Positions 23,896 through 61,304 of a stretch of DNA of 64,000 nt are shown here, in pieces. Positions within the stretch are counted from its first letter, which is position 1. Each line of letters opens with the position of its first letter. Source of the DNA: an uncultured Elusimicrobia bacterium (GTDB lineage: Bacteria; Elusimicrobiota; Endomicrobiia; Endomicrobiales; CAIRNS01); the NCBI GenBank assembly GCA_903880015.1, contig CAIRNS010000002.1, positions 16,330 through 80,329 on the forward strand. The letters run 5' to 3'. Under the pieces are notes generated by a model that was given only the letters and a program-made list of their open reading frames with translations, searched no databases and was not told the origin of the DNA. A program made the position numbers and the translations under genes.

Positions 23896-23956
23896 TATGG
23901 TATTCCTTATCCGCCTGGTTGAAACATCACCGGATGCATGTATCTGGCAAACAACC

Positions 23957-24154
23957 CGTCAAATCCACCCCGCCCCTCCTTTGCCAAAGGAGGGAGTTAC
24001 ATCCCGGTCAATTGTTAAAATGTGTGACACATCTCGCTGGCACCATTGACGCTATGCTCTTTCCACGCCGGGGAGTTACTTCTCTTCTTTCTTCAAAACT
24101 TTCGCAGTTGATTCTATCCCCCTTTGACAAAGGGGGACACAGGGGGATTTGCCG
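23957..24154. repeat. Family-1 repeat element bounded by inverted ~38-nt modules
   Basis: Left module CGTCAAATCCACCCCGCCCCTCCTTTGCCAAAGGAGGG (23957-23994). Right module CCCCCTTTGACAAAGGGGGACACAGGGGGATTTGCCG (24118-24154) is in reverse orientation. Confidence 0.85.
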
Positions 24155-24764: not shown

Positions 24765-24844
24765 GACGAAAATATATCAAATAATACAGCCCCGCACAAA
24801 TGATTGCAACGATTCCGCATGGAAAAATCACATGGTGCCACGGT

Positions 24845-24873
24845 TTGCCAATTACTTGTTAAAGAGATAAAAT
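24845..24873 (+). promoter_or_regulatory. Possible promoter of the PorV-like/NHL gene pair
   Basis: TTGCCA-N17-TAAAAT, about 40 nt upstream of the start. Confidence 0.35.
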
Positions 24874-24914
24874 AAGGAGTAATTTCTTTTTGCTTCGGCG
24901 CAGAGCGAGGGTTG

Positions 24915-25919
24915 ATGAAACGATGGACGCTGGTGACTGCATTACTGCTGGTGGCTGGCCCCGGATTTAGCGCCGGAACAACAGCTGCAAATTTCCTAAA
25001 AATCGGCGTTGGCGCCAGGAATGTTGCCCTGGGCGAAACCGGTGCGACGGAAAAAGGCGTTGATGCCGCCTATTGGAATCCGGCAGGACTTGCCGTTCTC
25101 CCCTCTCCGGCTGCCGGTTTTATGCATGCCCGCCAGTTTGACGATGTCACTTTCGAACATTTTGCCTTCGCCTACCCCGGCACCTGCGGCACCTGGGGAA
25201 TTTCCGCTGATTATCTGACGATGGACAATATAGAGAAGTATGACAACACGGGCACAAAAATGAATCAGTCCTATCGCCCGTCAGACATGGCTGTATCTTT
25301 GTCCTACGCGCGTATGCTCGGACGGATTCCCTGGGGCGTCAATCTTAAATATATCCGTTCGGCTATTGACGATGCGGCGGCGGATGCGTATGCCGTCGAT
25401 ACCGGACTTCTTTTCGACCGGTATCTGCCCAAAGATTTCAGCGGCGGATTCAGCGTGCAAAACATCGGGACATCCATGAAGTTTATCCAAGAGGCCTATC
25501 CCTTGCCGTTAAACATGCGCATGGGGCTCAGCTGGCGGGCAACCCCGCGCGTGACCATCGTCGCCGACGCCAACAAGGCGTCCGATACGGATATTGCCGG
25601 CAACGGCGGCGTCGAATACCTTTTGCCGGTCGGAAAGAACATTTCAATCGCCCCCCGCGCGGGATACAAAACCTCGGTCAAAGGCATTGACGGCATGGCA
25701 GGGATTACCGCGGGCATCGGTATTGTCGTCAACGCAATTACATTCGATTATGCGCTGGTTTCCTACGGCGATCTTGATAACGCTCAGCGCGTTTCCCTCA
25801 TATACCGGTTTGCACCGACTGTCCGCGTCAAGAAAGTGATTATAAAGAAGAATCCCCCGCATATGCCTGCGGATATCTATGATGATGCCGCGACCGTACG
25901 AAAATATAATGCGCACTAA
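24915..25919 (+). CDS. PorV/PorQ-family-like outer-membrane beta-barrel protein
   Basis: Signal peptide, then TTAANFLKIGVGARNVALGETGAT...AAYWNPAGLA, which is the characteristic PorV/PorQ N-terminal block. Alternating beta-strand pattern. An internal beta-signal-like VSLIYRF is followed by a 32-aa tail. The ATG at 24915 is preferred over the TTG at 24912. Confidence 0.7.
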   Translation: MKRWTLVTALLLVAGPGFSAGTTAANFLKIGVGARNVALGETGATEKGVDAAYWNPAGLAVLPSPAAGFMHARQFDDVTFEHFAFAYPGTCGTWGISADYLTMDNIEKYDNTGTKMNQSYRPSDMAVSLSYARMLGRIPWGVNLKYIRSAIDDAAADAYAVDTGLLFDRYLPKDFSGGFSVQNIGTSMKFIQEAYPLPLNMRMGLSWRATPRVTIVADANKASDTDIAGNGGVEYLLPVGKNISIAPRAGYKTSVKGIDGMAGITAGIGIVVNAITFDYALVSYGDLDNAQRVSLIYRFAPTVRVKKVIIKKNPPHMPADIYDDAATVRKYNAH

Positions 25920-28900
25920 ACGATCGTTTCCTCTATCTTGCAAATCAATAACTCTGGGAACATCCCTCCTCATCGGGCTGTGCGCGGTGGTCCATGCCGG
26001 TATCCTTACCGGAAGCGCCAACGGCGTCCTCGGTGAGCCGGACTATACGCACACCAGTTCCTACGGGGGAACTCAGAATGGCATGTACCATCCTTACTCT
26101 GTCGCGATAGATACAACTAATAACCGGCTCTTTGTGAGCGAATATGACAATAATCGCATCCTCTGGTGGAACAATGCATCTTCGCTGACTGACGGCGTCG
26201 GCAACGGCACGCCGGCGGACGGCGTGCTGGGTCAGGCGAATTTCATCGCCAACACATCCAACCGCGGCAACGGCACAACGCCGAGTCAAAGCTCATTTTA
26301 CAACCCACGCGGCATCGCCACCGACGCGACCGGGAAACTGTGGGTTGCGGATTATTTCAATAATCGTGTCTTATGTTTCGATTTGTCTGTATCAACATTC
26401 AATGCCTGCTATGTTCTGGGCCAGGCAAATTACTCATCTGCGGTCGTCGCCAGAACTCAAACTGCGCTTACCGGACCCTACGGCGTGACGGTAGACCATG
26501 CCGGCAATATCTGGGTGGCGGACGCCATTAATAACCGTGTCCTGCGCTACAATGGTTCTATCATTGCCAGCAGCATGCCCGCTGACATTGTTTTGGGAAC
26601 ATCAACATTTACGGGCTTGGCGGGGTCGGGGGACATGACTGCCAATGCGCTTATCCGCCCCAGCAGCGTCAAGGTCGACGCTGCCGGCAATGTATATGTC
26701 GCCGAATATACCAATAACCGCGTCGTCCAGTTCACGGCGCCCATCAGCAGCGGCATGGCTTCGTCCGTCGTTTTGGGACAGTCAGGATATGGACTGAAAA
26801 CTCTTGCAACAACACAAAGCGGTATGGTAACCCCCTATGATATTTCTCTCGACGGCAGCGGCAATGTGTGGGTTGCCATGTACCAAGTCTCCGGCACTTT
26901 CGGCTCACGGATAGTCCGGTACTCTCTGCCGTTAGCATCCGGCATGAATGCCGATTTTGTCATCGGGCAATCGGGCTTTACCAATGCGGGCTATAACCGT
27001 ACCGCCGGTTCAGCGGGGGCGGCGGTAGCCAACGGATTGGCAAGACCGAACGGGATGGCGTTCGATCAATCAGGACGAATGTGGATTGCCGATAACAACA
27101 ATAATCGCGTTCTCCGCTACGATCTTTCCACTTCGACACACACAGCCGGACTGGTCCTGGGACAAAATGACTTTACGCATAAACAGGAAAACCAGATAGA
27201 CGGCAAAACTCTTTACAACCCTTATTCTGTTGCCGTCGATACGACTACTAACAGAGTGTTTGCCGCTGATTTAGGCGGCTGCCGGGTGCTCTGGTGGAAC
27301 AATCAAGACTCGTTCACGAATGGCGCCGCCGCTGACGGGGTGTTGGGACAAAACAGTTTCACCGATTATTCCGCTAACCGCGGACTTACCGTTTCCTCAG
27401 ACACATTGAACGCCTCCGCCAGGGTAATGATTGATCCTGCGGGCGATATCTGGGTGGCCGATAGCAGCAACAACCGGGTGCTCAGATATCACGGTGCATC
27501 GCTGACCAGCGGCATGCCGGCCGACCTCGTCTTGGGCCAACTAAACTTCGTGTCGAACTCTGCTGGAACAGCAACCAGCACCAGCCTTTCAGGCCCCTCC
27601 AGCGTCCGGTGTGACCGGGAAGGAACCATCTGGGTGGTGGATTCAGGATACCACCGCGTGCTCAAATACAAAAAATATTCTGATATGGCGAATACTGAGC
27701 CGGCGGTTCATGTGCTGGGCCAGTCCGTCATGACTGCCGGACTAAAGAATCGCGACAACAGTTTAACGGCAAACCAAAACAGTTTCTACCAGCCGACAGA
27801 TATAGGTTTTGACATCAATAATGCCCCATGGATAGTCGATGGCAACAATAATCGGGTACTGTTATTTTCCAGCGGCACGATTACCGACGGCATGAACGCG
27901 GCGTATGTAGTCGGGCAAACAGATTTTATCGGCCATGCCGCATCGACCGCGACCCTGCAAGGACTGAACCTACCCTACGGCATTACGTTTGACCGCGATG
28001 AACGGGCATGGATTTCAGACGGCGGCAATGCGCGCATCATGTGTTACGGGCCGGTCACGGCGAATGCGCCAAGCGCGGCGGTAACGCTCGGCCAGTCAGG
28101 ATTGGATCAATATTCCCTGAAAAATCCGCGAGGAATACTATCTGATCCGCAGGGTTCTCTGTGGGTCGCCGACGGGGATAATAATCGATTGTTAAAATTC
28201 AACGGACTGTCGATTGCCGGCGTCTCGCCCACCCAGGGCTCCGTCAGCAGCGGTGCAATGACTGCCGTCCTCACCGGCACGGATTTCAGCCCATCGGTAC
28301 AAGTCCGCCTTGAGCGCGCCGGACAGACCGCTATTGTCTCTTCCAGCGTGACCGTAACCGGCGAAACGGGATTGTCCGCAACATTTTCTCTCACGGGCGC
28401 TACCACCGGATACTGGGATGTTGTGACATCGACGCGGGGTTTTTCCGCGCGGAGCTCCAACGCGATACTGCTGGTTTCCAGCGCAGCCGCACAATCCGAT
28501 TTAAACAATGTTGTCGAAAATATACTGACATTCACCGTCGGAACCGTCCAGATCACCCTTGATATCCCCGGCGGGACATTCAACGATGCATTTACCATTG
28601 CCTGCATTGCCGGAACGCAGTCGGCGGGACTAAACCAATCCGGCTTTTTTGCAACCCCTATCGCTCTCGAAATCACCAATTCAAAAGGACTCCAGCCGCT
28701 GAGCGCCATGACCATCACCGTCGCCTACGCCGATGCCGATGTCGCCGGCATGGATGAATCAAAACTGACCATTTGCTATTATGACACGGCGCGGGCGCGC
28801 TGGATACAGGTTCCCTCAATACCGGACCCGCTCAACAATAAGATTACCGGAACGATTAATCATTTATCTTCGTTTAGGGTCTTCGCGCGGGTACCCTTGT

Positions 28901-29208
28901 TGACGCTCGCTGACGCCGTTGCGTATCCCAATCCCTACAAACCCGGTTCAGGAACTTCCTACGACGATTCCGTTATGGGAAAAGGCATTGTGTTCGGCAA
29001 TATCACGGAGAACGCGCGGATACGCATATTCACCATTTCCGGCGAGCTGGTAAAAGATATTTCCGTTACCGGAAGCAACGGGACATGCGTGTGGGACGCC
29101 ACCAACGACAACGGCGATAAAGTCGCTTCGGGCGTTTTTCAGTATTTCATCACCAACCCCGACAACAGTTCTCAAAAAGCCAAAGGGAAGATAGCGGTCA
29201 TCCGCTGA
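25909..29208 (+). CDS. Secreted NHL-repeat beta-propeller protein with Ig-like domains and a T9SS-type/FlgD-Ig-like C-terminal domain
   Basis: More than 12 repeats of the NNRV(L/I)(R/W)(Y/W) type, and an IPT-like segment (SPTQGSVSSG...). The C-terminus is VAYPNPYKPG...ARIRIFTISGELVKDI...CVWDATNDNGDKVASGVFQYFI...KGKIAVIR. The start is uncertain: 25879 or 25909 in the same frame. Either choice overlaps the PorV-like gene. Confidence 0.75.
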   Translation: MRTKRSFPLSCKSITLGTSLLIGLCAVVHAGILTGSANGVLGEPDYTHTSSYGGTQNGMYHPYSVAIDTTNNRLFVSEYDNNRILWWNNASSLTDGVGNGTPADGVLGQANFIANTSNRGNGTTPSQSSFYNPRGIATDATGKLWVADYFNNRVLCFDLSVSTFNACYVLGQANYSSAVVARTQTALTGPYGVTVDHAGNIWVADAINNRVLRYNGSIIASSMPADIVLGTSTFTGLAGSGDMTANALIRPSSVKVDAAGNVYVAEYTNNRVVQFTAPISSGMASSVVLGQSGYGLKTLATTQSGMVTPYDISLDGSGNVWVAMYQVSGTFGSRIVRYSLPLASGMNADFVIGQSGFTNAGYNRTAGSAGAAVANGLARPNGMAFDQSGRMWIADNNNNRVLRYDLSTSTHTAGLVLGQNDFTHKQENQIDGKTLYNPYSVAVDTTTNRVFAADLGGCRVLWWNNQDSFTNGAAADGVLGQNSFTDYSANRGLTVSSDTLNASARVMIDPAGDIWVADSSNNRVLRYHGASLTSGMPADLVLGQLNFVSNSAGTATSTSLSGPSSVRCDREGTIWVVDSGYHRVLKYKKYSDMANTEPAVHVLGQSVMTAGLKNRDNSLTANQNSFYQPTDIGFDINNAPWIVDGNNNRVLLFSSGTITDGMNAAYVVGQTDFIGHAASTATLQGLNLPYGITFDRDERAWISDGGNARIMCYGPVTANAPSAAVTLGQSGLDQYSLKNPRGILSDPQGSLWVADGDNNRLLKFNGLSIAGVSPTQGSVSSGAMTAVLTGTDFSPSVQVRLERAGQTAIVSSSVTVTGETGLSATFSLTGATTGYWDVVTSTRGFSARSSNAILLVSSAAAQSDLNNVVENILTFTVGTVQITLDIPGGTFNDAFTIACIAGTQSAGLNQSGFFATPIALEITNSKGLQPLSAMTITVAYADADVAGMDESKLTICYYDTARARWIQVPSIPDPLNNKITGTINHLSSFRVFARVPLLTLADAVAYPNPYKPGSGTSYDDSVMGKGIVFGNITENARIRIFTISGELVKDISVTGSNGTCVWDATNDNGDKVASGVFQYFITNPDNSSQKAKGKIAVIR

Positions 29209-40877: not shown

Positions 40878-43457
40878 ATGAATACCAACAAACTAACCAT
40901 TAAAGCCCAGGAAGCGCTGGCCGATATGCAGACCATTGCCGGTGAGCATCAACAGCAGGAACTGGCTCCGGAACATCTTTTGGCGGCACTACTCAACCAG
41001 AAGGACGGCGTGGTGCCGGCAATCACCGAAAAAATGCAGTTAACCGCTGTGTTGAAAAAGAATATAGAAGAAGAGATTGCCAAACGGCCGCAGGTTTCAG
41101 GGGGACATGCGTATCTGTCTTCCGCGCTTGAAAAAGTTTTCTCCGCCGCGGAAAAAGAGGCGAAAAAACTCAAAGATGATTTTGTGTCTGCGGAACATTT
41201 GCTGTTGGGCATCATGGATGAAGGAACATCCGCCGCCGCGGTACTGCTCAAAAAGAACGCGGTAAGCAAGGACCAGATACTGCAGGCGCTCGTTGCCATT
41301 CGCGGAAGCCAGCGCATTACGGACCAGAACCCCGAGGATAAATATCAGGCGCTTGAAAAATACGGCCGTGATTTGACCGACCTCGCCCGCAAAGGAAAAC
41401 TCGATCCGGTGATTGGCCGCGATGAAGAGATACGGCGCACCATCCAGGTGCTGGCGCGGCGGACAAAAAACAATCCCGTACTGATAGGCGAGCCGGGCGT
41501 CGGTAAAACCGCCATCGTCGAAGGGCTTGCTCAGCGCATCGTTTCCGGCGACATTCCGGAAACGCTCAGAGACAAACGGGTTATCGCCTTGGACATGGGC
41601 GCACTGATTGCCGGCGCAAAATACCGCGGCGAGTTTGAGGACCGGCTTAAAGCCGTGCTCAAAGAAATACAATCCTCTGAAGGAAAAATAATCCTTTTTA
41701 TTGATGAACTCCACACCATTGTCGGCGCGGGAGCGGCTGAAGGTGCGGTCGACGCCGCCAACATGCTTAAGCCCATGCTCGCACGCGGCGAACTGCGGAT
41801 GGTCGGCGCGACCACCCTCGACGAATACCACAAACACATTGAAAAGGACGCGGCGCTGGAACGCCGATTCCAGACGATAACGGTCGGCGAGCCCACCGTT
41901 GACGACACTATCGCCATTTTGCGGGGGCTCAAGGAACGCTACGAAGTCCACCACGGCGTGCGCATTAAAGACACGGCCCTGGTCGCGGCGGCAACGCTCA
42001 GCGCCCGGTATATCACCGCCCGGTTCCTGCCGGACAAAGCCATCGACCTTATCGACGAAGCTGCCAGCCGTCTGCGCATAGAAATTGATTCCCTGCCGCA
42101 GGCGCTCGACATAGTGGAACGAAAGATTTTGCAGTTGGAGATCGAGCGCCAGGCAGTGCGCAAAGAGACCGATACCGCTTCAAAAGAGCGGTTACACAAG
42201 ATGGAAAGTGAGCTGGAGGAGTTGCGCGGTCAATCGGCAGTCATGAAAGGGCACTGGCTTAAAGAAAAAGACGCCATCGGAAAGATCCGCGCTATAAAAG
42301 GGCTCTTGGAGACGCTGAAACTGGACGAACAACGCGCGGAACGACAGGGTGACCTGGATAAAGTCGCTGAGATTCGCTATGGAAAAATCCCCGAGAATCA
42401 GCGGAAACTGGAAGAAGAGAATAAGATTCTTTCCGGCGTGCAGGGTGAAACAAAAATGCTTAAAGAAGAAGTAGATGAAGACGATATCGCCGCCGTGGTC
42501 GCCACATGGACCGGCATCCCCGTTACCCGGATGATGGAAGGCGAGATTGCGAAACTACTAAAAATGGAAAACCGCCTGCATGAGCGAGTCGTCGGGCAGG
42601 ATGAAGCGATTACCGCTATCGCTGACGCCGTGCGCCGGTCGCGGTCGGGCTTATCGGACCCCCACAAACCCGTGGGATCATTTATTTTTCTGGGGCCGAC
42701 GGGCGTGGGCAAGACGGAAGTGGCGAAAGCGCTGGCCGAATTCCTATTTGACGACGAAAAAAATCTTATCCGCATCGATATGTCGGAATACATGGAAAAA
42801 CACGCGGTATCACGCCTGGTCGGGGCGCCCCCGGGCTATGTCGGATTTGAAGAAGGCGGACAACTGACCGAAGCCGTACGCCGCCGCCCGTACGCGGTAA
42901 TCCTGTTCGACGAAATCGAGAAAGCGCATCCGGAAGTGTTTAATATTCTCCTGCAACTGCTGGACGACGGGCGCTTGACCGACGGGCAGGGACGCACGGT
43001 TGATTTCAAGAATACCGTTGTTATTATGACTTCAAACATCGGCTCCAACTGGATTCAGGAATCCGCCGATTACAATGATATGAAAAAAAAGGTCAACGAA
43101 GCCCTGACCGCGCATTTCAGGCCAGAATTTTTAAACCGGATAGACGAAATTATCATTTTCCGTCGGCTGGCTGCTGAACAACTGCAGGGTATCATCGACA
43201 TACAGCTCGCCGCAGTCCAGAAACGCCTGGCAGACCGCAAGCTAAACCTTGTCCTGACAAAAACCGCCCGGGCATTTTTGGCAAAAGCAGGGTACGACCC
43301 GGCATTCGGAGCCCGACCGCTGAAACGGTCAATCCAAAACCTGCTGCTTAATCCCTTATCGGCGAAACTAATAGCCGGCGAGTATGCGCAAGGCGACACC
43401 ATTGCGGTTGATAGCGCCCGCAAAGACGGCGTCGAGACCTTAGTCTTCAGTAAATAA
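40878..43457 (+). CDS. clpB: ATP-dependent chaperone/disaggregase ClpB
   Basis: 859-aa ORF with a Clp N domain, two AAA+ modules ([18 protein letters not shown]) and a long middle coiled coil. Confidence 0.95.
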
Positions 43458-43526
43458 ATTTTGTGTGTTTTTTAGAGGACCGCCGCGGGGTTTTGCGTGT
43501 GATTACATCATGTGGCATTGTTGCTG

Positions 43527-44822
43527 CTATGATGTATGCTTGCTTTTCTTGTTGTTTTTCCTGATGGGGCTTTTCTTGGAGCCGTTGTCTTCACGAATCA
43601 GTTCTTTTGTTCGCTCGCCCGTTACTATCATTTTCCCGCTCTTTTGATGTCCGTTGATATCGGAAATCAAATAAAAATACTCGCCCACGCCGACATTGAC
43701 ATCATTATCATTTTTCCCGTCCCAGGTGGCTTTATGGCTCACGCCATCGTTCCCGGCAGTTCCCGGCCTGATACTTTTCACCAATTTACCGGACATATCA
43801 AATATCCGTATCACTGCATCCTTGGGGATATGTTTGAAATGCAGGGTTCCGGTTTCTTCAGTCGAAAAATCAACCGGGTTCGGATACACGGCAATGCCGG
43901 ACAAAGGACGCCCTCCCAGCCCCGTCTTAAAGGCGTATCCCATGGACAGCATATGCGACCCGCCTATGTCGCCATACATGCCGAACGCATAATCAAACTT
44001 CATTTGTTGCCAGGTAATGCCTAATCCGAGATGTATACCAGAAATTCCGCCTGTCTCAGGACGGGTATTAAAGCCATCCCTGATAACCATTCCTTTTGCG
44101 ATTCTGTTCTCCATGCCGACGCCAAAAGACGGTTTACCGGACGGCGGGTAGTCCGCGTCCACGGCAATGCTCATAAACTGTTTGGGAAGAACTATGCTGC
44201 ACCCTAATTTCACATTGCTCGGTAAATCATTGCCTTTTATCTGACCGCCCATATTTTGAACTGCCATCCCCATGCGGAACATATCCGTAAAAAAATAGCT
44301 GGCGCCGACATCGCCGGCAAACCCCGAGGCAGAAACGACATCTATTGTCTGATTGATGCTCTTGGCACTGAATCCTAATGCTAATTTTCTGCCTATTTGT
44401 TTACCCCATCCGAACAAAACAGCGTACTCCATGCTGCCAAATGTTTGTCCGGTGGCTTGATAGTTCCCTGCAATATCTTCCGTGGTCTTGGCAATATCCC
44501 CCGTATAGAGCGATAGCGCACCTGCGGAAAATGTGCCATAGGCGGTCGGTTCAGCATATGCCATGTAATCATATTTTATGTCCTGAACATACTCCATATG
44601 CGTAAAGTCCACCACGGTTTTTTGGAGCCGCCCCAGATTTGCCGGATTCCAATACAGAGCATAGCCATCGATGACATCAGCCACGCCGGTTTCTCCCATC
44701 CCTGACGCTCGGGCGCCCGGGCCGATGGCCAAAAATTGAGCCGCAGTTGACCCCGTTCCCTTGGCATACGCCAAAGAACTTATGACGGCAATAATCACTG
44801 CGGCGATACGAAAACTTTTCAT
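43527..44822 (-). CDS. PorV/PorQ-like outer-membrane barrel fused to a T9SS-type/FlgD-Ig-like C-terminal domain and a Lys-rich tail
   Basis: Signal peptide, then GSTAAQFLAIGPGARASGMGETGVAD...ALYWNPANLG. The barrel ends at SMGYAF. Next comes IAVYPNPVDFS...IRIFDMSGKLVKSIRPGTAGNDGVSHKATWDGKND...YFYLISD..GHQKSGKMIV, then a KKSPIRKNNKKSK tail. Confidence 0.7.
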   Translation of the reverse strand: MKSFRIAAVIIAVISSLAYAKGTGSTAAQFLAIGPGARASGMGETGVADVIDGYALYWNPANLGRLQKTVVDFTHMEYVQDIKYDYMAYAEPTAYGTFSAGALSLYTGDIAKTTEDIAGNYQATGQTFGSMEYAVLFGWGKQIGRKLALGFSAKSINQTIDVVSASGFAGDVGASYFFTDMFRMGMAVQNMGGQIKGNDLPSNVKLGCSIVLPKQFMSIAVDADYPPSGKPSFGVGMENRIAKGMVIRDGFNTRPETGGISGIHLGLGITWQQMKFDYAFGMYGDIGGSHMLSMGYAFKTGLGGRPLSGIAVYPNPVDFSTEETGTLHFKHIPKDAVIRIFDMSGKLVKSIRPGTAGNDGVSHKATWDGKNDNDVNVGVGEYFYLISDINGHQKSGKMIVTGERTKELIREDNGSKKSPIRKNNKKSKHTS

Positions 44823-46540
44823 TTTACTACCCCGATTTTGCCGGTTTTTTTGTGACCGGGTTCATCGGTGATTAGATACAGGTACAATCCCATGCTGACA
44901 CCGTCACCATCCTCGTTTTTTCCGTTCCATTCGGCCCTGCCGCTGATACCATCGTTTTCTGCCGTCCCGGGCTTGAGAGTTTTCACCAATCCGCCGGTCA
45001 CATCGAATATCTGTACCTTTGCGCTATCGGTGAGATTGTCAAACTTTAACTTCCCGCGAACCGCTGTCTCAAAGCAAACCGGGTTCGGATATACAACAAC
45101 ACCGGACAAATCTGTCACTGCATTGGAAAGCGATGAGCCCGTATATGCTTTCAGACATACATTGGTATTGGTGTAAACAGTAGTAATATCACCCCATGCA
45201 GCGCCATCATGACTGATATAACTTTGCCCCGCAGCGGCAGTTGGACTGCTATAGCCGGAGATAGGATATTCCAGAGGGATGGGATAAGCGTACCCGGGGG
45301 TGGTCATTTTTACCACAACGCAAAAGGTCCGGTTGGCGCTGATAGGGATCGAGGAATCAAGCCGGATGGTATGATATCCGGTGACGGGAATCGTTCCGGT
45401 TTTTTTTCCTAATAATCCCGAAAACGACGACCCGCTAAAACTGTCATACACATATATCTCATAGGTTGCGTCCATCGCCGTAGAATAAAAACCTACTGCA
45501 TCTAACTGGTCATTGGAAGTTGCTGTAAAAACATTGGCGAACCACCCGGTAGTAGAGGAATACCCGGCCGCCGTACTCATGCCCAGCGGATCATACTGAT
45601 ATATGTGTTGATAGTTCCCATTTCTTTCAAAAACCGCGTTATCGGTGCCTATGTTAGTATCATAATAGGAAACATAGAAATAACCGGCATTGCCCCAGCT
45701 TGACCCCCAACTGTTTTTGACGATAAAGGCGCCATTGCCCGGCGGAACCGTGGAAAAATTTGTTTTATCATAATTGTCATCCCATCCGACTAACGCTACG
45801 CCATGATTGCTCACTGCTGTACCGCTGTAATAATATGCGGCATTGATTGGGTTGTAATATGTGGCACCTATATTCATGTATATAGAGGTCATAACAGCGC
45901 CTACATCGGTAATCATTTGCTTTATGTTGTCGTTGTCCGACACACTACTTCTGTCCGGGATAAAGAGTGCTTCTTGCACATGTGCTTGTACTGCTGATCC
46001 TGGGGGAGACCCGCCCTTGTTGGGATAGGGATCGTCGGATTCATACACCGGCCCGCCCCATCTGGTGAGATATGCCGTTGACATCCCATACGTACCGCCG
46101 CCGTCATAGCCAAGATCGAACCCGGAGAGATTTACAAGATTGTTTTCTGAAAAATCTTGTGTGTCGAGGGGTAAAAAATATGATTCCAATGCGCTGTAGG
46201 TGGCGAATGCCCAGCAGGTATTGTAAGCGCCCTGATCTCTAATCGGGGTAACCTTTCCCTGGCTGCGCAGATCATACGACGCAAGGTACCCGAGGGGCGC
46301 AGGTAGGCCATTGAGCCGTTTCGCCATGCGTTTCCCTCTGGTGTGGGAAAAATCTACCGGCGAAGGAATTAATCCTGAAGCATGATTATTTGTTGACTGT
46401 TTTGGTGCTTTTCCCTGCTGCATGTCGATCAAATAATTTTTGAACCCCGCGCTGACAGGGGCGCACTGCATGTCGGCATATGCAAACATACCTGGCCCCA
46501 TCAGTACAATCATAATAAAAGAGATGGCTTTTTTCTTCAT
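44819..46540 (-). CDS. Secreted papain-like (C1 family) cysteine peptidase with a T9SS-type/FlgD-Ig-like C-terminal domain
   Basis: Signal peptide MKKKAISFIMIVLMGPGMFAYA and the catalytic Cys motif DQGAYNTCWAFATYSALE. NHGVALVGWDD and VKNSWGSSWG match papain-family blocks (His region and the NSWG block). C-terminal VVVYPNPVCF...VQIFDVTGGLVKTLKPGTAENDG...WNGKNEDGD...YLYLITD..GHKKTGKIGVVK. The start is moved to Met34 (46540), and there is an ATGA overlap with the downstream PorV-like gene. Confidence 0.8.
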   Translation of the reverse strand: MKKKAISFIMIVLMGPGMFAYADMQCAPVSAGFKNYLIDMQQGKAPKQSTNNHASGLIPSPVDFSHTRGKRMAKRLNGLPAPLGYLASYDLRSQGKVTPIRDQGAYNTCWAFATYSALESYFLPLDTQDFSENNLVNLSGFDLGYDGGGTYGMSTAYLTRWGGPVYESDDPYPNKGGSPPGSAVQAHVQEALFIPDRSSVSDNDNIKQMITDVGAVMTSIYMNIGATYYNPINAAYYYSGTAVSNHGVALVGWDDNYDKTNFSTVPPGNGAFIVKNSWGSSWGNAGYFYVSYYDTNIGTDNAVFERNGNYQHIYQYDPLGMSTAAGYSSTTGWFANVFTATSNDQLDAVGFYSTAMDATYEIYVYDSFSGSSFSGLLGKKTGTIPVTGYHTIRLDSSIPISANRTFCVVVKMTTPGYAYPIPLEYPISGYSSPTAAAGQSYISHDGAAWGDITTVYTNTNVCLKAYTGSSLSNAVTDLSGVVVYPNPVCFETAVRGKLKFDNLTDSAKVQIFDVTGGLVKTLKPGTAENDGISGRAEWNGKNEDGDGVSMGLYLYLITDEPGHKKTGKIGVVK

Positions 46541-46669
46541 GGTTTCATTCCGCTTTTTTCCCCATCTCCTGCATCCCCTTACCTGACATGTCGGGATGTC
46601 CGCGCCCTTGAAAGAATTTACATGTATCTTTCCGTACATCTTGACCTACTGCGTGCGACTAGTTTAGCT

Positions 46670-46698
46670 ATTATAATGTATATATCCTCAGGCGTCAA
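46670..46698 (-). promoter_or_regulatory. Promoter of the peptidase/PorV-like operon
   Basis: Minus strand reads TTGACG-N17-TATAAT, about 125 nt upstream of the ATG at 46540. Confidence 0.5.
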
Positions 46699-46784
46699 GA
46701 ATTAAAAATAAGCGCAAATTATCCGATGTGCTGTTTTGTGCGTGGCCCCCCAATATGACCGGCGCCGCAGTGTGTTCGGGATGG

Positions 46785-47708
46785 TTATATGCCGTACTTG
46801 CGAGTGGCTGACTTAGTTAAATTTCCGTAGTTGAGGAAAACCGTTACTTCGCCGTTTGCTTTATTCTCGCGGCTGCGGTAATTCACGGAAACCAAATTCT
46901 GCATCAGATACAAGATATAGGTAAACTGCGTGGTCAGCTCCGCCGAAGTCGGCGATGTTATAAACCGGCCGTTAGTCGTGGAAGTAATGAAATTGAGCGT
47001 GGTGGCATCGACGCCGAAGCCGAGCCCGATGATATGCGCCGCAACACCCGTTTTGTTAACTTCATCCGCAACATTTTCTTGAGTGCGAAATAAGATACTC
47101 GCATTTTCCTGCCCGTCGGTTAGGACCAGTATGAATTTGCGCCCGGTCCGGGAGCGAAGCTCCTGGGCAGCAAGGCCGATTGCATCAAATAACGCGGTGT
47201 TACCGAACGCGGGAGGCAAATCAATGATTGATTTAAGCAGGGGCTTGCTGGTGGTAAACCCCACGCTGACGTTCGCCGTCGATGAAAAATCAATGATCTC
47301 CGCAGCATCCCCGGCCCCCAGATTGTCGATAAATTGTTTAGCGGCGGCGTTGGCATCGTCGGTCGCTGTGCCCGCCATGCTCCCGCTGCGGTCCATACAG
47401 ATGGACACTGACAACGGCTCATCGAGCTTGCTGACGCCGGTTAAGACAGAGGGATTATTGTTGTCTATAACGGTAAAATTGCCAATCTTAAAATCGGTCA
47501 GCGCGGTTCCGCTTTGGTCCGTCACCAAAACGAACACGCGCCCTTCGGGGAATGTGCGGCTATCATACTGCGGGCACTGCATGGAAACTGCGGTTGTCCC
47601 GCTGGCGGGCAGGGAAAGCACCGGGTCTTTTTTCCGGTCACAGCCGGAAAACATCATTATCGCCGCAATAAGAAAAACTCCGCTGTTCTTTATCACTGGT
47701 TGAACCAC
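46785..47708 (-). CDS. vWA-domain lipoprotein
   Basis: Lipobox-like MMFSGCD, an N-terminal beta-rich domain, the MIDAS motif DRSGSMAG, and LVLTDGQEN. Confidence 0.7.
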   Translation of the reverse strand: MVQPVIKNSGVFLIAAIMMFSGCDRKKDPVLSLPASGTTAVSMQCPQYDSRTFPEGRVFVLVTDQSGTALTDFKIGNFTVIDNNNPSVLTGVSKLDEPLSVSICMDRSGSMAGTATDDANAAAKQFIDNLGAGDAAEIIDFSSTANVSVGFTTSKPLLKSIIDLPPAFGNTALFDAIGLAAQELRSRTGRKFILVLTDGQENASILFRTQENVADEVNKTGVAAHIIGLGFGVDATTLNFITSTTNGRFITSPTSAELTTQFTYILYLMQNLVSVNYRSRENKANGEVTVFLNYGNLTKSATRKYGI

Positions 47709-48313
47709 CAGGCAACGCCCAGGTGAATACTGGTGTTCACTGTAAAGTATTCGCGCGAGGCGTAAACAAAATGTGCACGCGCTTCCGGCACCAACTCAAG
47801 GGAGTTGCTGATTTTATATCCCCATCCGGCGGAGAGCGACACTCCGGGGGAATAACTGATATTTGACCGGGCGCCCGTAGCCGGGGTGTCGATGCGTATC
47901 CAATCGGCATATCCGCCAAAACCTATCCCGGCAAACAATGATGATGTGCACGAATCGTTCACGGGGAAAAAAAATACTTGGCTCAGCGCAATGTCAAACA
48001 TGTCTTCAGTCGTACCATACACGCCCGCCGGGAGTACCATCGGAAAATAGTCGACCGACACGCGCCAAGCGTAGCGAGACCACCAGTGACCCCCCAGCGA
48101 ACCCTGGGGAATGTAGAAATCGGCGCCGAAATACGGTGAGCTCCCGTAGCTGGGGAATCCTGATTGCAAAAGGTTTGTGCCGGCGTTGACAGACATGATA
48201 TACGAGCACTGTTTACCGAGAACACCGGGTGATTGGCGACAAAAAGCAGGACTGGAGAGAAAAAGAAAGACGCAGACAGCAACGGCGCTTGCAAGAGATG
48301 CAGATATCTTCAT
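47693..48313 (-). CDS. Small outer-membrane beta-barrel protein (OmpW/OmpA-barrel-like)
   Basis: 206-aa ORF with a signal peptide, alternating aromatic/hydrophobic strands and an aromatic-rich C-terminus (HLGVAWWFNQ). It overlaps the vWA gene by 16 nt. Confidence 0.5.
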   Translation of the reverse strand: MKISASLASAVAVCVFLFLSSPAFCRQSPGVLGKQCSYIMSVNAGTNLLQSGFPSYGSSPYFGADFYIPQGSLGGHWWSRYAWRVSVDYFPMVLPAGVYGTTEDMFDIALSQVFFFPVNDSCTSSLFAGIGFGGYADWIRIDTPATGARSNISYSPGVSLSAGWGYKISNSLELVPEARAHFVYASREYFTVNTSIHLGVAWWFNQ

Positions 48314-48366
48314 CGGTAACTTATTTTTGCATAAAATTTATTGTCTGTCAAACGGCGGGCGGCAGG

Positions 48367-48396
48367 TTGAAGTGCGGATTGTACTTATGATATAAT
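48367..48396 (+). promoter_or_regulatory. Aconitase promoter
   Basis: TTGAAG-N18-TATAAT, 40 nt upstream of the ATG. Confidence 0.45.
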
Positions 48397-48436
48397 TTTA
48401 TGAGTATTATGCGATTGCAAGAAAGGTGTCACTGCA

Positions 48437-50371
48437 ATGAATATAACGCACCACATCATTAACAACCATTTGCTGTCGGGGACCATGGAAGTCGGCCGGG
48501 AAATAGGGTTGCGCATTGACCAGACCTTGACGCAGGATGCGACGGGGACGATGGCGTATCTGCAATTTGAAGCGATGGGTATTGCGAAAGTGAAGACGGG
48601 ACTGTCCGTCAGTTATGTTGACCACAATACCCTGCAGACCGGCTTTGAGAATGCCGACGACCACCGCTTTTTGCAATCGATTGCCGCAAAGCATGGTATT
48701 CATTTTTCACGACCGGGCACCGGGATATGCCATCAGGTCCATCTCGAACGCTTCGGCATACCGGGCCAGACGCTGATCGGGTCCGATTCGCATACGCCGA
48801 CCGCCGGAGGGTTGGGCATGCTCGCCTTCGGAGCTGGCGGGCTCGATGTGGCGTGCGCGATGGCCGGCCAGCCATTTTATATAACCATGCCGAAAATCGT
48901 CGAAGTGCATCTGACCGGGAAACTCAAAGACTGGGTCAGCGCAAAAGATGTTATCCTCGAACTCTTGCGTCAGCTGTCCGTAAAGGGCGGCCGTGGTAAG
49001 ATATTTGAGTTTTCCGGACCGGGCGTCAAAACCCTCAGCGTACCCGAACGGGCTACCATCACCAATATGGGCGCGGAACTGGGCGCGACAACATCGATTT
49101 TTCCGTCAGACGAAGTAACAAAACACTTTTTTGCGCAACAAAAACGCGCAAGTTCATGGAAGGAATTAGTGCCCGGCCCTGCGGCAACATACGACGAAAA
49201 AATCACGATTGACATGGGCGCCCTTGAACCGCTGATTGCCCTGCCGCACAGCCCGGACAATGTCAAAAAAATAAAAACTGTTGCCGGAACTGCGGTTCAA
49301 CAAGTGGCGATAGGGTCATGCACCAATTCATCGCTGGCCGATTTAATGCTAGTCGCGCATATGCTTAAAGGAAAGAAAGTTCACCCGTCGGTTTCCCTCG
49401 TTATTTCGCCGGGGTCTCAGCAGGTGCTGGTTATGCTGGCGCAATCCGGCATGTTAGCGGACATCATCGCCAGCGGCGCGCGGATTCTGGAATGTGCCTG
49501 CGGGCCCTGCATCGGGATGGGGCAGGCACCGTCGAGCGGTGCCGTATCTTTGAGAACATTCAACCGCAATTTCGAAGGGCGCAGCGGCACCAAAGACGCA
49601 CAGGTGTATTTATGTTCCCCGCATGTCGCCGTTGCCGCCGCACTGGCCGGAGAAATAGTTGACCCCCGGAACTTTTTTGGCGCCGAGCCCTCAATTCAGG
49701 TGCCCTCAACCTTTTTTGTTGACCAATCCAGTATCTATGCGCCATCAAAAAGCCCAACGAAAACTGATATTCACCGGGGACCGAACATCACCGCATTGCC
49801 GCTGTTCCCGCCGATGGCTGACCGTATCGCTGGGACAGTGTTGTTGACGGTAGGCGATAATATCACCACAGACCATATTATGCCGGCGGGAGCAAAAGTT
49901 TTACCCCTCCGGTCTAACTTGCCGGCCATTGCCGAGCATACCTTTGCCCCCGTAGACAAAGATTTCGCCGCTCGCGCAAAAAAAGCGGGAGGCGGTGTCA
50001 TTGTTGCGGGCGACAACTACGGCCAGGGCTCTTCGCGTGAGCACGCCGCGCTGGCGCCCCGTTATCTGGGCGTCACAGCGGTGATAGCCAAATCGTTTGC
50101 GCGGATACATCTGGCAAACCTCATCAATTTCGGCATTGTGCCGTTGACCTTTGCCAACCCTGCCGACTATACGACCATCGAACAAGGCGCCGTACTGGAA
50201 ATGAACGATTTAATGGCAACCATAAAAAATAACGGTGCAATAAAGGCCTCGGTTGCGGGAACAAAAAAAGTTATCCTCCTGCAATTGTCGTTAACCGACC
50301 GGCAAAAAGAACTGTTGTTCGCCGGCGGACTGCTTAACTGGATTAAAGCGCAGTCGCCGGAAAAAAAGTGA
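48437..50371 (+). CDS. Aconitate hydratase (~640-aa aconitase-family protein with catalytic and swivel domains fused)
   Basis: DQTLTQDATG, GSDSHT, SCTNSS, CGPCIG and the C-terminal swivel motif GDNYGQGSSREHAA. Confidence 0.85.
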   Translation: MNITHHIINNHLLSGTMEVGREIGLRIDQTLTQDATGTMAYLQFEAMGIAKVKTGLSVSYVDHNTLQTGFENADDHRFLQSIAAKHGIHFSRPGTGICHQVHLERFGIPGQTLIGSDSHTPTAGGLGMLAFGAGGLDVACAMAGQPFYITMPKIVEVHLTGKLKDWVSAKDVILELLRQLSVKGGRGKIFEFSGPGVKTLSVPERATITNMGAELGATTSIFPSDEVTKHFFAQQKRASSWKELVPGPAATYDEKITIDMGALEPLIALPHSPDNVKKIKTVAGTAVQQVAIGSCTNSSLADLMLVAHMLKGKKVHPSVSLVISPGSQQVLVMLAQSGMLADIIASGARILECACGPCIGMGQAPSSGAVSLRTFNRNFEGRSGTKDAQVYLCSPHVAVAAALAGEIVDPRNFFGAEPSIQVPSTFFVDQSSIYAPSKSPTKTDIHRGPNITALPLFPPMADRIAGTVLLTVGDNITTDHIMPAGAKVLPLRSNLPAIAEHTFAPVDKDFAARAKKAGGGVIVAGDNYGQGSSREHAALAPRYLGVTAVIAKSFARIHLANLINFGIVPLTFANPADYTTIEQGAVLEMNDLMATIKNNGAIKASVAGTKKVILLQLSLTDRQKELLFAGGLLNWIKAQSPEKK

Positions 50372-56966: not shown

Positions 56967-57121
56967 AACACCGTTTGAATTTTTTTTTCTGATAAGTTAT
57001 ATTATTATCAGCGTCAGAAAAACAATGAAACCAATCAATCTTGGCATTGGCATGTATTATATCAACAGGGCATAAACCACATACCGTGCAGCTGTTGAAA
57101 ACTTTTACAGGAGGGCATGTT

Positions 57122-58117
57122 ATGGACGCGGTTCGGGACATTCGGGAGATTAACGAGAAAGTACAGAAGGAAAGCGTGTTCATCGTACAATTGATGAACG
57201 AGATAAGCCAGGTGATTGTCGGTCAAAATTATCTTATTGAACGGATGCTGGTCGGACTGCTGGCAAACGGACATATACTTCTCGAAGGCGTACCGGGGCT
57301 GGCAAAAACCCTGGCGGTAAAAACGCTTTCTTCAGCCATTAAAACAAAGTTTCAGCGGATACAGTTTACCCCCGACCTTTTGCCGGCTGATCTTATCGGC
57401 ACGCTGGTGTACAGCCCGCAAAACGGCAGTTTCAGCGTCAAAAAGGGACCGCTTTTTTCGAACCTTGTGCTGGCCGATGAAATCAACCGTGCGCCGGCGA
57501 AGGTACAGAGCGCACTTCTGGAAGCCATGCAGGAACGCCAGGTGACTATCGGCGATACGACCTATCCTTTACCGGAACCGTTTCTGGTGATGGCGACACA
57601 AAACCCCATCGAGCAGGAGGGCACCTATCCGCTTCCCGAGGCGCAGGTGGATCGGTTTATGCTGAAATTAAAAATTACCTATCCCTCAAAAGCCGAAGAA
57701 AAACAGATATTGGAACGCATGACGCAGGGAAACACCATTACGGTCAAGCCCGTGATAACGCCCGAGGAGATTACGCGCGTGCGTCAAACGGTTCAAGAAA
57801 TATATGTTGATGATAAAGTGAAGAACTATATCGTAGATATAGTTTTTGCCACGCGCAACCCCGGGGACTACAAACTCGACAACCTGAAAAATCTGATTGC
57901 GTACGGCGCGTCGCCGCGGGCAACGATAAATTTAACGCTCGCCGCGAAAGCGTACGCTTTTCTGCAAGGGCGCGGGTATGTGACGCCTGAAGACATAAAA
58001 CTGATAGGCCCCGATGTATTACGCCACCGCATTATTCAAACATACGAAGCGGAAGCCGAGGAAATGACATCGGAAGACATTATCAAACAGGTTTTCGACG
58101 GCGTTGAAGTCCCGTAA
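57122..58117 (+). CDS. MoxR-family AAA+ ATPase
   Basis: LLEGVPGLAKT (Walker A), VLADEINRA (Walker B) and ATQNPIEQEGTYPLPEAQVDRF. AGGAGG lies 8 nt before the ATG at 57122, so the track start at 57041 was rejected. Confidence 0.9.
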   Translation: MDAVRDIREINEKVQKESVFIVQLMNEISQVIVGQNYLIERMLVGLLANGHILLEGVPGLAKTLAVKTLSSAIKTKFQRIQFTPDLLPADLIGTLVYSPQNGSFSVKKGPLFSNLVLADEINRAPAKVQSALLEAMQERQVTIGDTTYPLPEPFLVMATQNPIEQEGTYPLPEAQVDRFMLKLKITYPSKAEEKQILERMTQGNTITVKPVITPEEITRVRQTVQEIYVDDKVKNYIVDIVFATRNPGDYKLDNLKNLIAYGASPRATINLTLAAKAYAFLQGRGYVTPEDIKLIGPDVLRHRIIQTYEAEAEEMTSEDIIKQVFDGVEVP

Positions 58118-58136
58118 CGCGGGAATCCGTTGAGAA

Positions 58137-59042
58137 TTGGCTATAGCTCAATCCATGTTACCTAAAGAAATCATCGCTCAGATACGAAAAATTGAGATCA
58201 GGTCCGGCAAACTGGTCAACGAAATGTTTGCGGGCCAGTACTCCTCTGTCTTTAAGGGGCGGGGGATGGAGTTTGCCGAAGTTCGGGAATACCTGCCCGG
58301 TGACGACATCCGTTCCATCGACTGGAATGTTACCGCCCGGTATGGTCACCCCTATGTAAAGAAATTCACCGAAGAACGGGAAATGACTGTGCTGTTTCTG
58401 GTAGACATGTCCGGATCACAGCGGTTCGGCACACGGGGAAACTTTAAAGCGGAGCTGGCGGCTGAACTGACCAGCGTCCTGGCGTTTTCAGCCATAAAAA
58501 ATAACGACCGGGTCGGCATGGTCATGTTTACCGATAAAATCGAAAAAGTTATCCGCCCGAAAAAGGGGCGCAATCATATTCTGCGCATGATTCGCGAAAC
58601 GCTGTATTTCACCCCAACCGGGACCGGCACCAATATTACCCGTGCACTGCAGTATCTCAACGAATTGTGGCGACGAAAATCAGTCGTCTTTCTGATATCG
58701 GATTTTAACGACGCGGGATTTGACCAGGCGTTAAAGGTAACTGCACGGCGCCACGACCTGATTGCCGTCACGATTGCCGACGACCGGGAAAAAAACCTGC
58801 CCGATATCGGATTGGTAGAGCTTGAAGACGCTGAATCGGGACAGAAGATGACGGTCGACACTTCATCGGCACCCTTTATAAAAGAATATACGCGCCGTAC
58901 AGAGGAAAATGCCCAACGCCTAAAAACGCTTTTTACCCGGGCGCATGTCGATTCCATCGCGGTAACAACGGGCAAACCCTATATCGTGCCCCTAATACAG
59001 TTTTTCAGAACCCGCGAGAAACGCCAAGCCACCGGAAGATAA
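58137..59042 (+). CDS. DUF58-domain protein (MoxR partner, vWA-like fold)
   Basis: EFAEVREYLPGDDIRSIDWNVTAR and LVDMSGSQ. The start is uncertain: TTG at 58137 or ATG at 58155. Confidence 0.8.
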   Translation: MAIAQSMLPKEIIAQIRKIEIRSGKLVNEMFAGQYSSVFKGRGMEFAEVREYLPGDDIRSIDWNVTARYGHPYVKKFTEEREMTVLFLVDMSGSQRFGTRGNFKAELAAELTSVLAFSAIKNNDRVGMVMFTDKIEKVIRPKKGRNHILRMIRETLYFTPTGTGTNITRALQYLNELWRRKSVVFLISDFNDAGFDQALKVTARRHDLIAVTIADDREKNLPDIGLVELEDAESGQKMTVDTSSAPFIKEYTRRTEENAQRLKTLFTRAHVDSIAVTTGKPYIVPLIQFFRTREKRQATGR

Positions 59043-59072
59043 ATGGATGCTGTCTTGGTTGGCGTTGTTATT

Positions 59073-59188
59073 GTAGGGGCGGGCCTTGCGTCCGCCCGCA
59101 ATAGTGTTTTTCGAGATTTAAGGGAACTGGTTTTGGGGATCACCAACACGGTAACACCTGATCGGGCGGACGCGAGGCCTGCCCCTAC
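59073..59188 (+). repeat. Family-3 long inverted repeat (26-nt GC-rich arms, 64-nt loop) inside the MoxR/Bat operon
   Basis: GTAGGGGCGGGCCTTGCGTCCGCCCG (59073-59098) pairs with CGGGCGGACGCGAGGCCTGCCCCTAC (59163-59188). Read on the plus strand this gives 24 Watson-Crick pairs and 2 G:U pairs. Confidence 0.85.
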
Positions 59189-59212
59189 AAACGACAGACA
59201 TTTAACTATATC

Positions 59213-61095: not shown

Positions 61096-61102
61096 CAAGG
61101 CA

Positions 61103-61285
61103 CGGCAAATCCCCCTTACCCCCTTTGTCAAAGGGGGAGTGAGACAACAACTCCTTTTTCTGGGGGAGGGTGAGACAACCGCTCCTTTTTGGCAAGGAGG
61201 ATAGTGGCAACAACTCTTTTTCGGGGGGAAGATATGAGCTTTTTGCTCCCTCCTTTGGCAAAGGAGGGCGGGGGAGGATTTGACG
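61103..61285. repeat. Family-1 repeat element between batA and batB, with inverted terminal modules and an internal degenerate ~30-bp tandem repeat
   Basis: Left module CGGCAAATCCCCCTTACCCCCTTTGTCAAAGGGGG (61103-61137). Right module CCCTCCTTTGGCAAAGGAGGGCGGGGGAGGATTTGACG (61248-61285). The interior holds 3-4 units of the form GGAG..GAGACAAC..CTCCTTTTT. Confidence 0.85.
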
Positions 61286-61304
61286 GTGACGGAACTATAC
61301 TATT

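Follow-up and report, generated by a model that had tools for sequence, protein, structure and literature searches.

In this study, we describe a pair of genes on the minus strand of a 64,000-nucleotide stretch of DNA (hereafter the window; positions 16,330 to 80,329 of contig CAIRNS010000002.1, assembly GCA_903880015.1) from an uncultured Elusimicrobia bacterium of the order Endomicrobiales. The first gene encodes a putatively secreted cysteine peptidase of the papain family and the second an outer membrane β-barrel of the PorV/PorQ family, and the two products end in copies of one and the same C-terminal domain (CTD), which resembles type IX secretion system (T9SS) CTDs. Pairing of a CTD protein with such a barrel is itself common across many phyla; the unusual part is that the barrel carries its own copy of the docking tag of the protease. 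The two-gene unit spans positions 43527-46639 and its reading frames are continuous (Table 1). The open reading frame (ORF) of the peptidase extends over 44819..46639(-), equivalent to 606 aa, and the MKKK at 46540 is the likely true start. An earlier interpretation made from the letters of this DNA (the sequence-only reading) had described two minus-strand genes joined by an ATGA stop/start overlap at 44819-44822, and both the ORFs and the overlap are as it described them. The overlap suggests that the peptidase and the barrel are translationally coupled; the same 4-nt overlap is also found in the loci L001 (twice), L005, L006, L012 and L013. The same reading gave the unit a promoter of its own. 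TTGACG-N17-TATAAT is the top sigma-70-like match within 43300-48500, but sigma-70-like sites in this region are not in excess of those in shuffled sequence (9 observed vs. 7.4 ± 3.1 expected), and for this reason the site is taken as a candidate only.

Table 1. Coordinates of the peptidase/barrel unit, its domains and the second barrel pair in the window
Feature	Position	Strand	Description
Promoter candidate TTGACG-N17-TATAAT	46670..46698	-	Sigma-70-like, 11/12 consensus positions
Peptidase gene	44819..46540	-	Cwp84-like cysteine peptidase with C-terminal CTD; 573 aa from the MKKK start
Probable signal peptide of the peptidase, MKKKAISFIMIVLMGPGMFAYA	46475..46540	-	Basic N-region, hydrophobic core, A-Y-A before the cut; read from the sequence
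Papain-family catalytic domain, aa 88-293	45662..46279	-	PF00112 Peptidase_C1, 90.3 bits (cut-off 20.7)
Lectin_like domain as in Cwp84, aa 313-467	45140..45604	-	PF18560, 177.2 bits (cut-off 27), full model 1-156
Cargo CTD, aa 478-573	44822..45109	-	Predicted seven-stranded β-sandwich at the extreme C-terminus, ending GKIGVVK
Stop/start overlap ATGA	44819..44822	-	Peptidase stop / barrel start, 4 nt
Barrel gene	43527..44822	-	PorV/PorQ-family outer membrane barrel + C-terminal CTD + basic tail, 431 aa
Barrel proper, aa 25-298	43929..44750	-	NF033709; final β-signal-like strand HMLSMGYAF at 43929-43955
Flexible linker KTGLGGRPLSG, aa 299-309	43896..43928	-	Predicted local distance difference test (pLDDT) <50 at aa 301-304; junction motif RP(L/V)S common to P0003
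Barrel's own CTD, aa 310-400	43623..43895	-	51% identical to the cargo CTD; predicted folded, pLDDT ~83-93
Disordered basic tail, aa 402-431	43530..43619	-	30 aa, 10 K/R, 4 D/E
Second PorV/PorQ-family barrel	24912..25919	+	335 aa, NF033709 167.7 bits, no CTD
NHL-repeat partner	25879..29208	+	1109 aa, start overlaps the end of the barrel gene; CTD at 28906-29205

The kinship of the two C-terminal copies, for which the earlier hand count had given 45 identical positions in 93, is confirmed: BLASTP aligned residues 478-569 of the peptidase with residues 307-398 of the barrel protein without a gap and with 47 of 92 positions identical (E 1e-27). Against TIGR04183, the cut-off of which is 23, the barrel copy scored above (24.5) and the peptidase copy below (20.8), and with PF18962 the two copies reached 15.7 and 16.8, below the cut-off of 27. 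The strongest sequence matches of the domain were the C-terminal ends of PorZ (54.9 bits, E 5e-15, for the peptidase copy) and PorU. A separate AlphaFold2 model of the peptidase CTD has seven strands (pLDDT 87.6), as in the β-sandwich of the solved T9SS CTDs, and its best matches in the PDB were again PorZ (5m11; E 1.4e-6, TM-score 0.76, root-mean-square deviation 2.3 Å) and PorU (6za2; E 1e-4), with the CTDs of RemA and NucA (8gl6_D, 8glk_D) lower in the list. A conserved lysine stands near the end of type A CTDs (PMC10994853); the peptidase CTD lies at the extreme C-terminus and closes with the lysine of GKIGVVK, and that of an NHL-repeat protein encoded elsewhere in the window closes with GKIAVIR. 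The barrel copy keeps the GK, yet 30 more residues come after it. The type B model, TIGR04131, gave only 15.6 against a cut-off of 35. Taken together, the TIGR04183 score of the barrel copy, the matches to the C-terminal ends of PorZ and PorU and the structural matches to the same two proteins support the T9SS-like identity that the sequence-only reading had proposed, as opposed to a generic immunoglobulin (Ig) fold. Its nearest counterparts, in sequence and in predicted structure alike, are the CTDs that PorZ and PorU retain as anchors. A search with the CTD alone in a word-indexed protein database returned only 6 matches.

The closest solved structure to the peptidase is Cwp84 of Clostridioides difficile (PDB 4ci7, E 4e-39 over residues 25-467; see also 4d59), a surface-associated C1 protease with the same succession of pro-region, papain-type domain and lectin-like domain. 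The Peptidase_C1 domain scores well above its cut-off and the lectin-like domain is complete (Table 1). All of the papain-type residues, Gln103, Cys109, His246 and Asn276, are kept, and because of this the enzyme looks active; the signal at its N-terminus, ending in AYA, is probably of the Sec type. The family score and the intact catalytic set support the C1 cysteine peptidase of the earlier proposal. What sets it apart from Cwp84 is the attachment module. Cwp84 is held on the Gram-positive cell wall through cell-wall-binding repeats, whereas here a T9SS-type CTD and an outer membrane barrel would stand in their place.

The barrel protein has its own signal peptide, likewise ending in AYA. 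It matches NF033709, the NCBIfam model of the PorV/PorQ family, from end to end (134.5 bits vs. a curated cut-off of 90, model positions 1-326), in agreement with the PorV/PorQ-like identity first suggested for it, and the identical protein is named "PorV/PorQ family protein [Elusimicrobia bacterium]" at NCBI. The more specific equivalog models of PorV, PorQ and PorV2 (NF033710, NF033711 and NF052325) stayed below their cut-offs, with 57.7 vs. 250, 106.7 vs. 220 and 78.8 vs. 325 bits, respectively, and ten related barrels did the same, so that all the barrels tested belong to the generic PorV_fam only. An AlphaFold2 model of the fusion protein, built from 109 homologues, reached a pLDDT of 87 overall and more than 90 within the barrel, and was read only for confidence and secondary structure. 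The predicted fold is a FadL-like β-barrel. Its nearest solved structure is PorV (8gl6_F, E 1.5e-15) as seen in the T9SS translocon with bound substrate, and TbuX, TodX and FadL come next. The GYAF that had been taken for an internal β-signal occupies residues 295-298 and is aligned with the C-terminal end of barrel-only homologues. A basic tail comparable to that of the window protein is present in two relatives (P0002 and P0003) and absent from a third (P0005).

The fusion of barrel and CTD is real and old, but rare. An identical fusion protein is found on 7 contigs (NCBI, JGI, ENA, Logan), and the same layout recurs in P0002, P0003 and P0005, three proteins from other samples with 43-46% identity in which the junction falls at the same alignment position; one of the three is present on 9 contigs. 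Each of their genes, moreover, starts within the last 4 nt of a Peptidase_C1+Lectin_like+CTD gene, and the peptidase/barrel-CTD pair is thereby a conserved unit in relatives, with order and overlap kept. A frameshift, which the sequence-only reading named as a ground for refuting its fusion, or an error of assembly might have attached a barrel gene to the 3′ end of a second CTD gene. Such an artefact, with the rarity of the architecture as the sole point in its favor, is next to inconceivable and was rejected, given the continuous frame, the 7 identical contigs and the same junction in independent assemblies at 43-46% identity. As for the rarity, 1.84 billion representatives were searched exhaustively with HMMER, and among the 11,534 barrel relatives recovered, both barrel and CTD were matched only in the window protein and in one other 50%-identity cluster, and none of the 80 barrels in the survey of GTDB genomes described below bears its own CTD. 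Tblastn alignments that ran to about query residue 400 had at first sight indicated widespread fusions; these candidates were rejected when ORF calling showed that the matched CTD was that of the upstream cargo gene. A limited literature search found no described PorV-CTD fusion, and the sequence-only reading knew of none.

As the sequences are best read, a cargo CTD was duplicated long ago and gave rise to the CTD of the barrel. A recent gene conversion of one copy by the other was rejected on the basis of their 64% nucleotide identity and of codon usage, 24 of the 47 identical residues having identical codons vs. 18.6 expected. Between the window and the relatives, identity amounts to 56-67% for the cargo CTDs, 48-56% for the peptidase body, 47-52% for the barrel body and 30-34% for the barrel CTDs. 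The cargo CTD is therefore the most constrained part of the module, as would be expected of a recognition domain. In the relatives, the YPNP, IFD and GK motifs are gone from the barrel CTDs, which are, to judge from these comparisons, under weaker or different constraint.

In barrels of the FadL/PorV type, the topology and the C-terminal β-signal are such that this end of the protein faces the periplasm. The CTD of the window barrel begins 11 residues past HMLSMGYAF, the terminal strand of barrel-only homologues. The family's 150 best representatives include 47 with a length of 400 aa or more, and among the extensions that were inspected there are OmpA-like peptidoglycan-binding domains (e.g., P0044, and a PA1041/OmpA-type domain at 165.7 bits in L033), tetratricopeptide (TPR) repeats, Ig-like domains followed by OmpA (P0173, P0233), and TPR repeats followed by a CTD-like domain (P0234). 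A CTD-like domain ends the periplasmic extensions of the barrels P0234, P0174, P0154 and P0161, which belong to other lineages. Since it comes after the last barrel strand, at the position held by OmpA and TPR domains in relatives, the barrel's own CTD is almost certainly periplasmic. The known recognition of CTDs by PorV takes place at the extracellular loops, inside SprA (PMC10994853). Self-loading of the barrel through its own tag is thus unlikely, and the autoinhibited receptor put forward in the sequence-only reading is not supported, as the fused CTD would lie on the wrong side of the membrane for the binding that is known.

The pairing of CTD proteins with barrels was surveyed in the 80 best GTDB species-genome loci by barrel alignment, in which ORFs were called and searched with a barrel hidden Markov model (HMM) and an iterated CTD HMM. 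In 63 of these 80 loci, a gene for a C-terminal-CTD protein lies immediately before the barrel gene, at a distance of -49 to +171 nt and on the same strand. Within the Elusimicrobiota, 27 of 30 barrels come after a CTD gene, and in 12 of the 27 pairs the genes overlap by 4 nt; further pairs were found in Aerophobetes, Armatimonadota, Zixibacteria, Marinimicrobia, Calditrichota, Ignavibacteria, Rhodothermales and metagenome-assembled genomes of Bacteroidota. Conversely, 79 of the 97 ORFs with a C-terminal CTD in all fetched loci abut a barrel. The sequence-only reading knew of no cargo/shuttle cistron pairs, but besides these 63 survey barrels, porU and porV of Porphyromonas gingivalis are neighbors, 75 bp apart and in the order CTD protein then barrel (PMC5445135), and the genes of type B CTD cargo are "often genetically linked" to PorP/SprF barrels (PMC12618676; also PMC9143113). 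No third recurring partner was seen among the 89 other genes near the Elusimicrobiota pairs, all of which are unrelated housekeeping genes.

The partners in these pairs are diverse and include PQQ/BamB-like propellers, proteins of ~1900 aa, proteins of ~1100 aa without a family match and mini-proteins of 142-193 aa; that some partners are little more than a CTD fits a role of that domain in binding or anchoring. Among the closest barrel-only relatives, P0006 follows, with a 4-nt overlap, a CTD protein the N-terminal part of which lies beyond the contig end, P0007 follows a ~2000-aa CTD protein with CarboxypepD_reg repeats at a distance of ~60 nt, and P0065 and P0081 follow, each with a 4-nt overlap, a 2191-aa Kelch protein and a 2449-aa S8 peptidase, both with a CTD. 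The mini-proteins, which are hardly more than a signal peptide and a CTD, stand directly before barrels in L031 (6707-8223), L033 (6710-9165), L035 (6860-9048) and L037 (5631-8185), and three of these four barrels (L033, L035 and L037) have long C-terminal extensions, that of L033 including a thrombospondin-type region and the PA1041/OmpA-type peptidoglycan-binding domain. In a set of loci from the Fibrobacteres-Chlorobi-Bacteroidetes (FCB) group (L039, L051, L052, L062, L066, L068, L070, L074, L077, L084, L087 and L088), the barrel, at about position 7000, comes after a conserved protein of 1044-1429 aa. Pfam matched none of seven among eight such proteins scanned and gave a weak Por_Secre_tail match for the eighth, and the two that were also scanned against NCBIfam had no match there; with the HMM built here, however, the C-terminal CTD is clear on all of them. 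In several of these loci, one more CTD protein is encoded just downstream of the barrel. It looks as though they form an uncharacterized conserved cluster; an assignment of the ~1100-aa upstream proteins as PorU was rejected, there being no NCBIfam or Pfam match. CTD-protein/barrel modules are, then, widespread but little described.

Of the systems known from the literature, PorZ-PorQ and PorU-PorV of P. gingivalis are likest to the pair described here, in that a surface protein with a type A CTD goes with a barrel of the PorV/PorQ family, although the pairing here is known from the genes. PorU and PorZ keep their CTD uncleaved and are held at about 1:1 on PorV and PorQ, respectively (PMC5562754, PMC10202324). 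The window barrel scores higher on the PorQ model (106.7 bits) than on that of PorV (57.7 bits). There are, however, differences: the cargo here is an ordinary hydrolase and not a component of a secretion system; there is one barrel per cargo and there are several pairs per genome; the Elusimicrobiota lie outside the FCB group, and none of the T9SS core genes was seen in ~84 kb of contig; and the barrel is below the three equivalog cut-offs and bears a CTD of its own. The type B CTD proteins with their PorP/SprF barrels (SprB-SprF of Flavobacterium johnsoniae, PG1035-PorP of P. gingivalis) show the same linkage of cargo gene and dedicated barrel gene, and the cargo depends on that PorP/SprF-type barrel for its secretion and for its attachment to the surface (PMC12618676, PMC9143113). 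In contrast to these, the CTD here is type A-like and the barrel is of the PorV/PorQ family, with no PorP/SprF match in Pfam or NCBIfam searches. PorV itself, the general shuttle of type A cargo, which acts at the lateral gate of SprA (PMC10994853), is of the same family and fold, whereas the barrels described here are cargo-specific and many of their relatives are fused to peptidoglycan-binding OmpA domains, and it is because of these fusions that fixed anchors fit better than mobile shuttles. With two-partner secretion (type Vb) the likeness is one of logic only, a large secreted protein and a dedicated outer membrane barrel being encoded side by side: the recognition domain here is C-terminal, the barrel is not of the Omp85/POTRA type and the N-terminal TPS domain is missing, neither protein having a match to these families in the Pfam and NCBIfam searches.

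We hold, with moderate confidence and by analogy with these systems, that the locus encodes a two-gene surface-display module in which a CTD cargo would be supplied with its own anchor barrel, the CTD of the barrel being a periplasmic appendage. Both products would pass through the inner membrane via the Sec pathway, as their signal peptides suggest, and the barrel would be inserted into the outer membrane by the β-barrel assembly machinery (BAM), to judge from its family, fold and β-signal. The CTD of the peptidase, left uncleaved, may dock non-covalently and stably on its cognate barrel in the way that PorZ sits on PorQ and PorU on PorV, and the 4-nt overlap may balance the two products at about 1:1. 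The CTD and basic tail of the barrel would remain periplasmic, where they would tether or position the barrel, and this CTD may also contact periplasmic partners that recognize cargo CTDs. For the passage of the peptidase across the outer membrane, a translocon encoded elsewhere in the genome is assumed.

Several points weigh against the display module as we propose it. For its translocation step, no gene of the T9SS core (SprA/Sov, PorK/L/M/N or GldK/L/M/N, PorU, PorZ, PorT, PorW) was found in the ORFs of at least 150 aa in the window, within 10 kb on either side of it (~84 kb of contig in total) or among the 89 genes neighboring Elusimicrobiota pairs. Moreover, a survey of 2484 genomes detected T9SS in Bacteroidetes alone (PMC4793230), and in later work it is ascribed to the FCB superphylum (PMC12398890). 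A limited literature search found no paper on T9SS, PorV-like barrels or such pairs in Elusimicrobia or Endomicrobia, which is no proof of novelty. The barrel also falls short of each of the PorV, PorQ and PorV2 equivalog cut-offs. The query of the survey included a CTD and may have enriched for pairs, although the loci matched via the barrel alone are pairs in 43 of 58 cases (74%). Finally, the window barrel CTD keeps YPNP, IFD, LVK and GK without recent gene conversion, which suggests that it still has a CTD-specific role beyond spacing; as the motifs are kept in the window lineage and decayed in the relatives, the lineages disagree, and the retention seen in the former leaves room for a CTD-specific role in the periplasm.

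It is unlikely, in our estimation, that the pair is a self-contained system of two-partner export, in which the barrel, alone or with BAM, would translocate as well as anchor the CTD protein without SprA or PorKLMN, the CTD/barrel pair then being the ancestral core of T9SS cargo handling. Such a system would agree with the lack of T9SS core genes in ~84 kb of contig and of a conserved third gene among the 89 neighbors, with T9SS having gone undetected outside Bacteroidetes in the 2484 genomes (PMC4793230), and with the finding, in non-FCB phyla, that each cargo has a barrel of its own, the two being apparently often coupled in translation; cargo of up to ~2400 aa encoded beside the barrel gene also recalls the logic of two-partner systems and autotransporters. 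However, the T9SS-core negative covers ~84 kb, a small part of the genome, and the same pairs exist in FCB phyla that have T9SS. A barrel of the FadL/PorV type with an N-terminal plug region is not known to let folded or long polypeptides through, and the barrel is without POTRA or Omp85 features.

Still less probable, although it has the motif retention of the window copy behind it, is the idea that the barrel CTD is a working cis-ligand, which would either form a periplasmic heterodimer with the cargo CTD and so recruit the peptidase or, as a placeholder or autoinhibitor, occupy the site where the export machinery or the barrel recognizes a CTD until cargo comes, this second option being the suggestion of the sequence-only reading. 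The window copy, with its type A hallmark residues and an identity of 51% to the cargo CTD in the absence of recent conversion, is under a CTD-like constraint. The fusion persists in at least 3 diverged paralogues or orthologues, and CTD-like domains have independently come to end barrel extensions in P0234, P0174, P0154 and P0161. Heterodimers would also be in line with the dimers that the CTD of RgpB is said to form by strand exchange, reportedly described by de Diego et al. in 2016. On the other hand, the relatives' barrel CTDs, devoid of YPNP, IFD and GK, diverge faster (30-34% identity) than the cargo CTDs (56-67%), and with 0 of 80 GTDB barrels carrying a CTD the domain is dispensable for the module. 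Furthermore, an 11-residue linker starting from the periplasmic rim could hardly reach the extracellular PorV loops inside SprA (PMC10994853).

A pair devoted to nutrient acquisition, with the barrel serving as a FadL-type import channel for the products of the peptidase and the shared domain being merely a common Ig-like module, is very improbable. A peptidase beside an outer membrane channel is a common sight in nutrient-uptake loci, and the solute channels TbuX, TodX and FadL are the next structural matches after PorV, but the barrel scores in the PorV/PorQ family and not as FadL, and the family is also paired with non-enzymatic partners (NHL, Kelch and PQQ-type propellers, CTD-only mini-proteins), the constant feature of which is the CTD and not an activity. 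We further advance, as a speculation with only a slender chance of being right, that in Elusimicrobiota and other non-FCB phyla the pair might be a free-standing export-and-display device without SprA or PorKLMN, an ancestral core of T9SS cargo handling, and that the barrel CTD of this clade might be a cis primer or placeholder for the cargo CTD.

The window contains a second pair, in which the order is barrel then cargo (Table 1). The CTD of its NHL-repeat protein is related to that of the peptidase (tblastn E 2e-15) and matches the C-terminus of PorZ with 84.4 bits, and the same pair is found in L001 at 9101-13647. In that locus (2860-13647), two tandem peptidase/barrel-CTD pairs lie between the gene of a methionine-synthase B12 domain and the barrel/NHL pair, whereas in the window the methionine-synthase/barrel/NHL arrangement occupies 21475-29208, with the only peptidase pair at a distance of 15 kb, adjoining clpB. 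From this difference of site, it follows that the peptidase/barrel-CTD pair moves as a unit.

Other features of the contig may be mentioned in their own right. Directly upstream of the peptidase pair and on the same strand (46785-48313), a 206-aa ORF without a family match, which resembles a small barrel protein, overlaps by 16 nt the start of the gene of a 307-aa von Willebrand factor A (VWA)-domain protein with a lipoprotein-like signal (…FSGC); these two genes do not adjoin the peptidase pair in relatives. At 10401-15655 (+), the gene of a 1331-aa protein with DUF2334 as its sole match overlaps by 4 nt the gene after it, which encodes a PgaC/IcaA-like glycosyltransferase, and the two may form an exopolysaccharide module. 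From 57041 to 62330 (+) and on into L095 there are genes for a MoxR ATPase, a DUF58 protein and BatA/BatB-like VWA proteins, then TPR and BatD, making up a complete Bat-type (aerotolerance-like) operon. About 9 kb past the low-coordinate end of the window (L094, 20625-21284), the gene of a 2349-aa protein begins after a 180-aa ORF and leaves the stretch that was fetched.

In Bacteroidota, one PorV serves all type A cargo, and cargo-specific pairs are restricted to PorU/PorV, PorZ/PorQ and type B cargo with PorP. The members of the PorV/PorQ family described here are mostly cargo-specific partners, and they occur in a phylum not known for T9SS and in many others. If this is borne out, barrels of this family would serve widely, and possibly from the start, as stable one-to-one anchors, and shuttling would be a specialization. 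The pairs would also provide a simple rule to predict surface-displayed proteins in uncultured diderm bacteria and, as a compact two-part handle, they are a candidate for surface display. The CTD borne by the barrel is a rare, conserved oddity whose function, as far as sequence allows us to infer it, would lie in the periplasm. It is in effect a natural construct that places a CTD on the periplasmic side, and it may prove a useful probe of the site and mode of CTD recognition.

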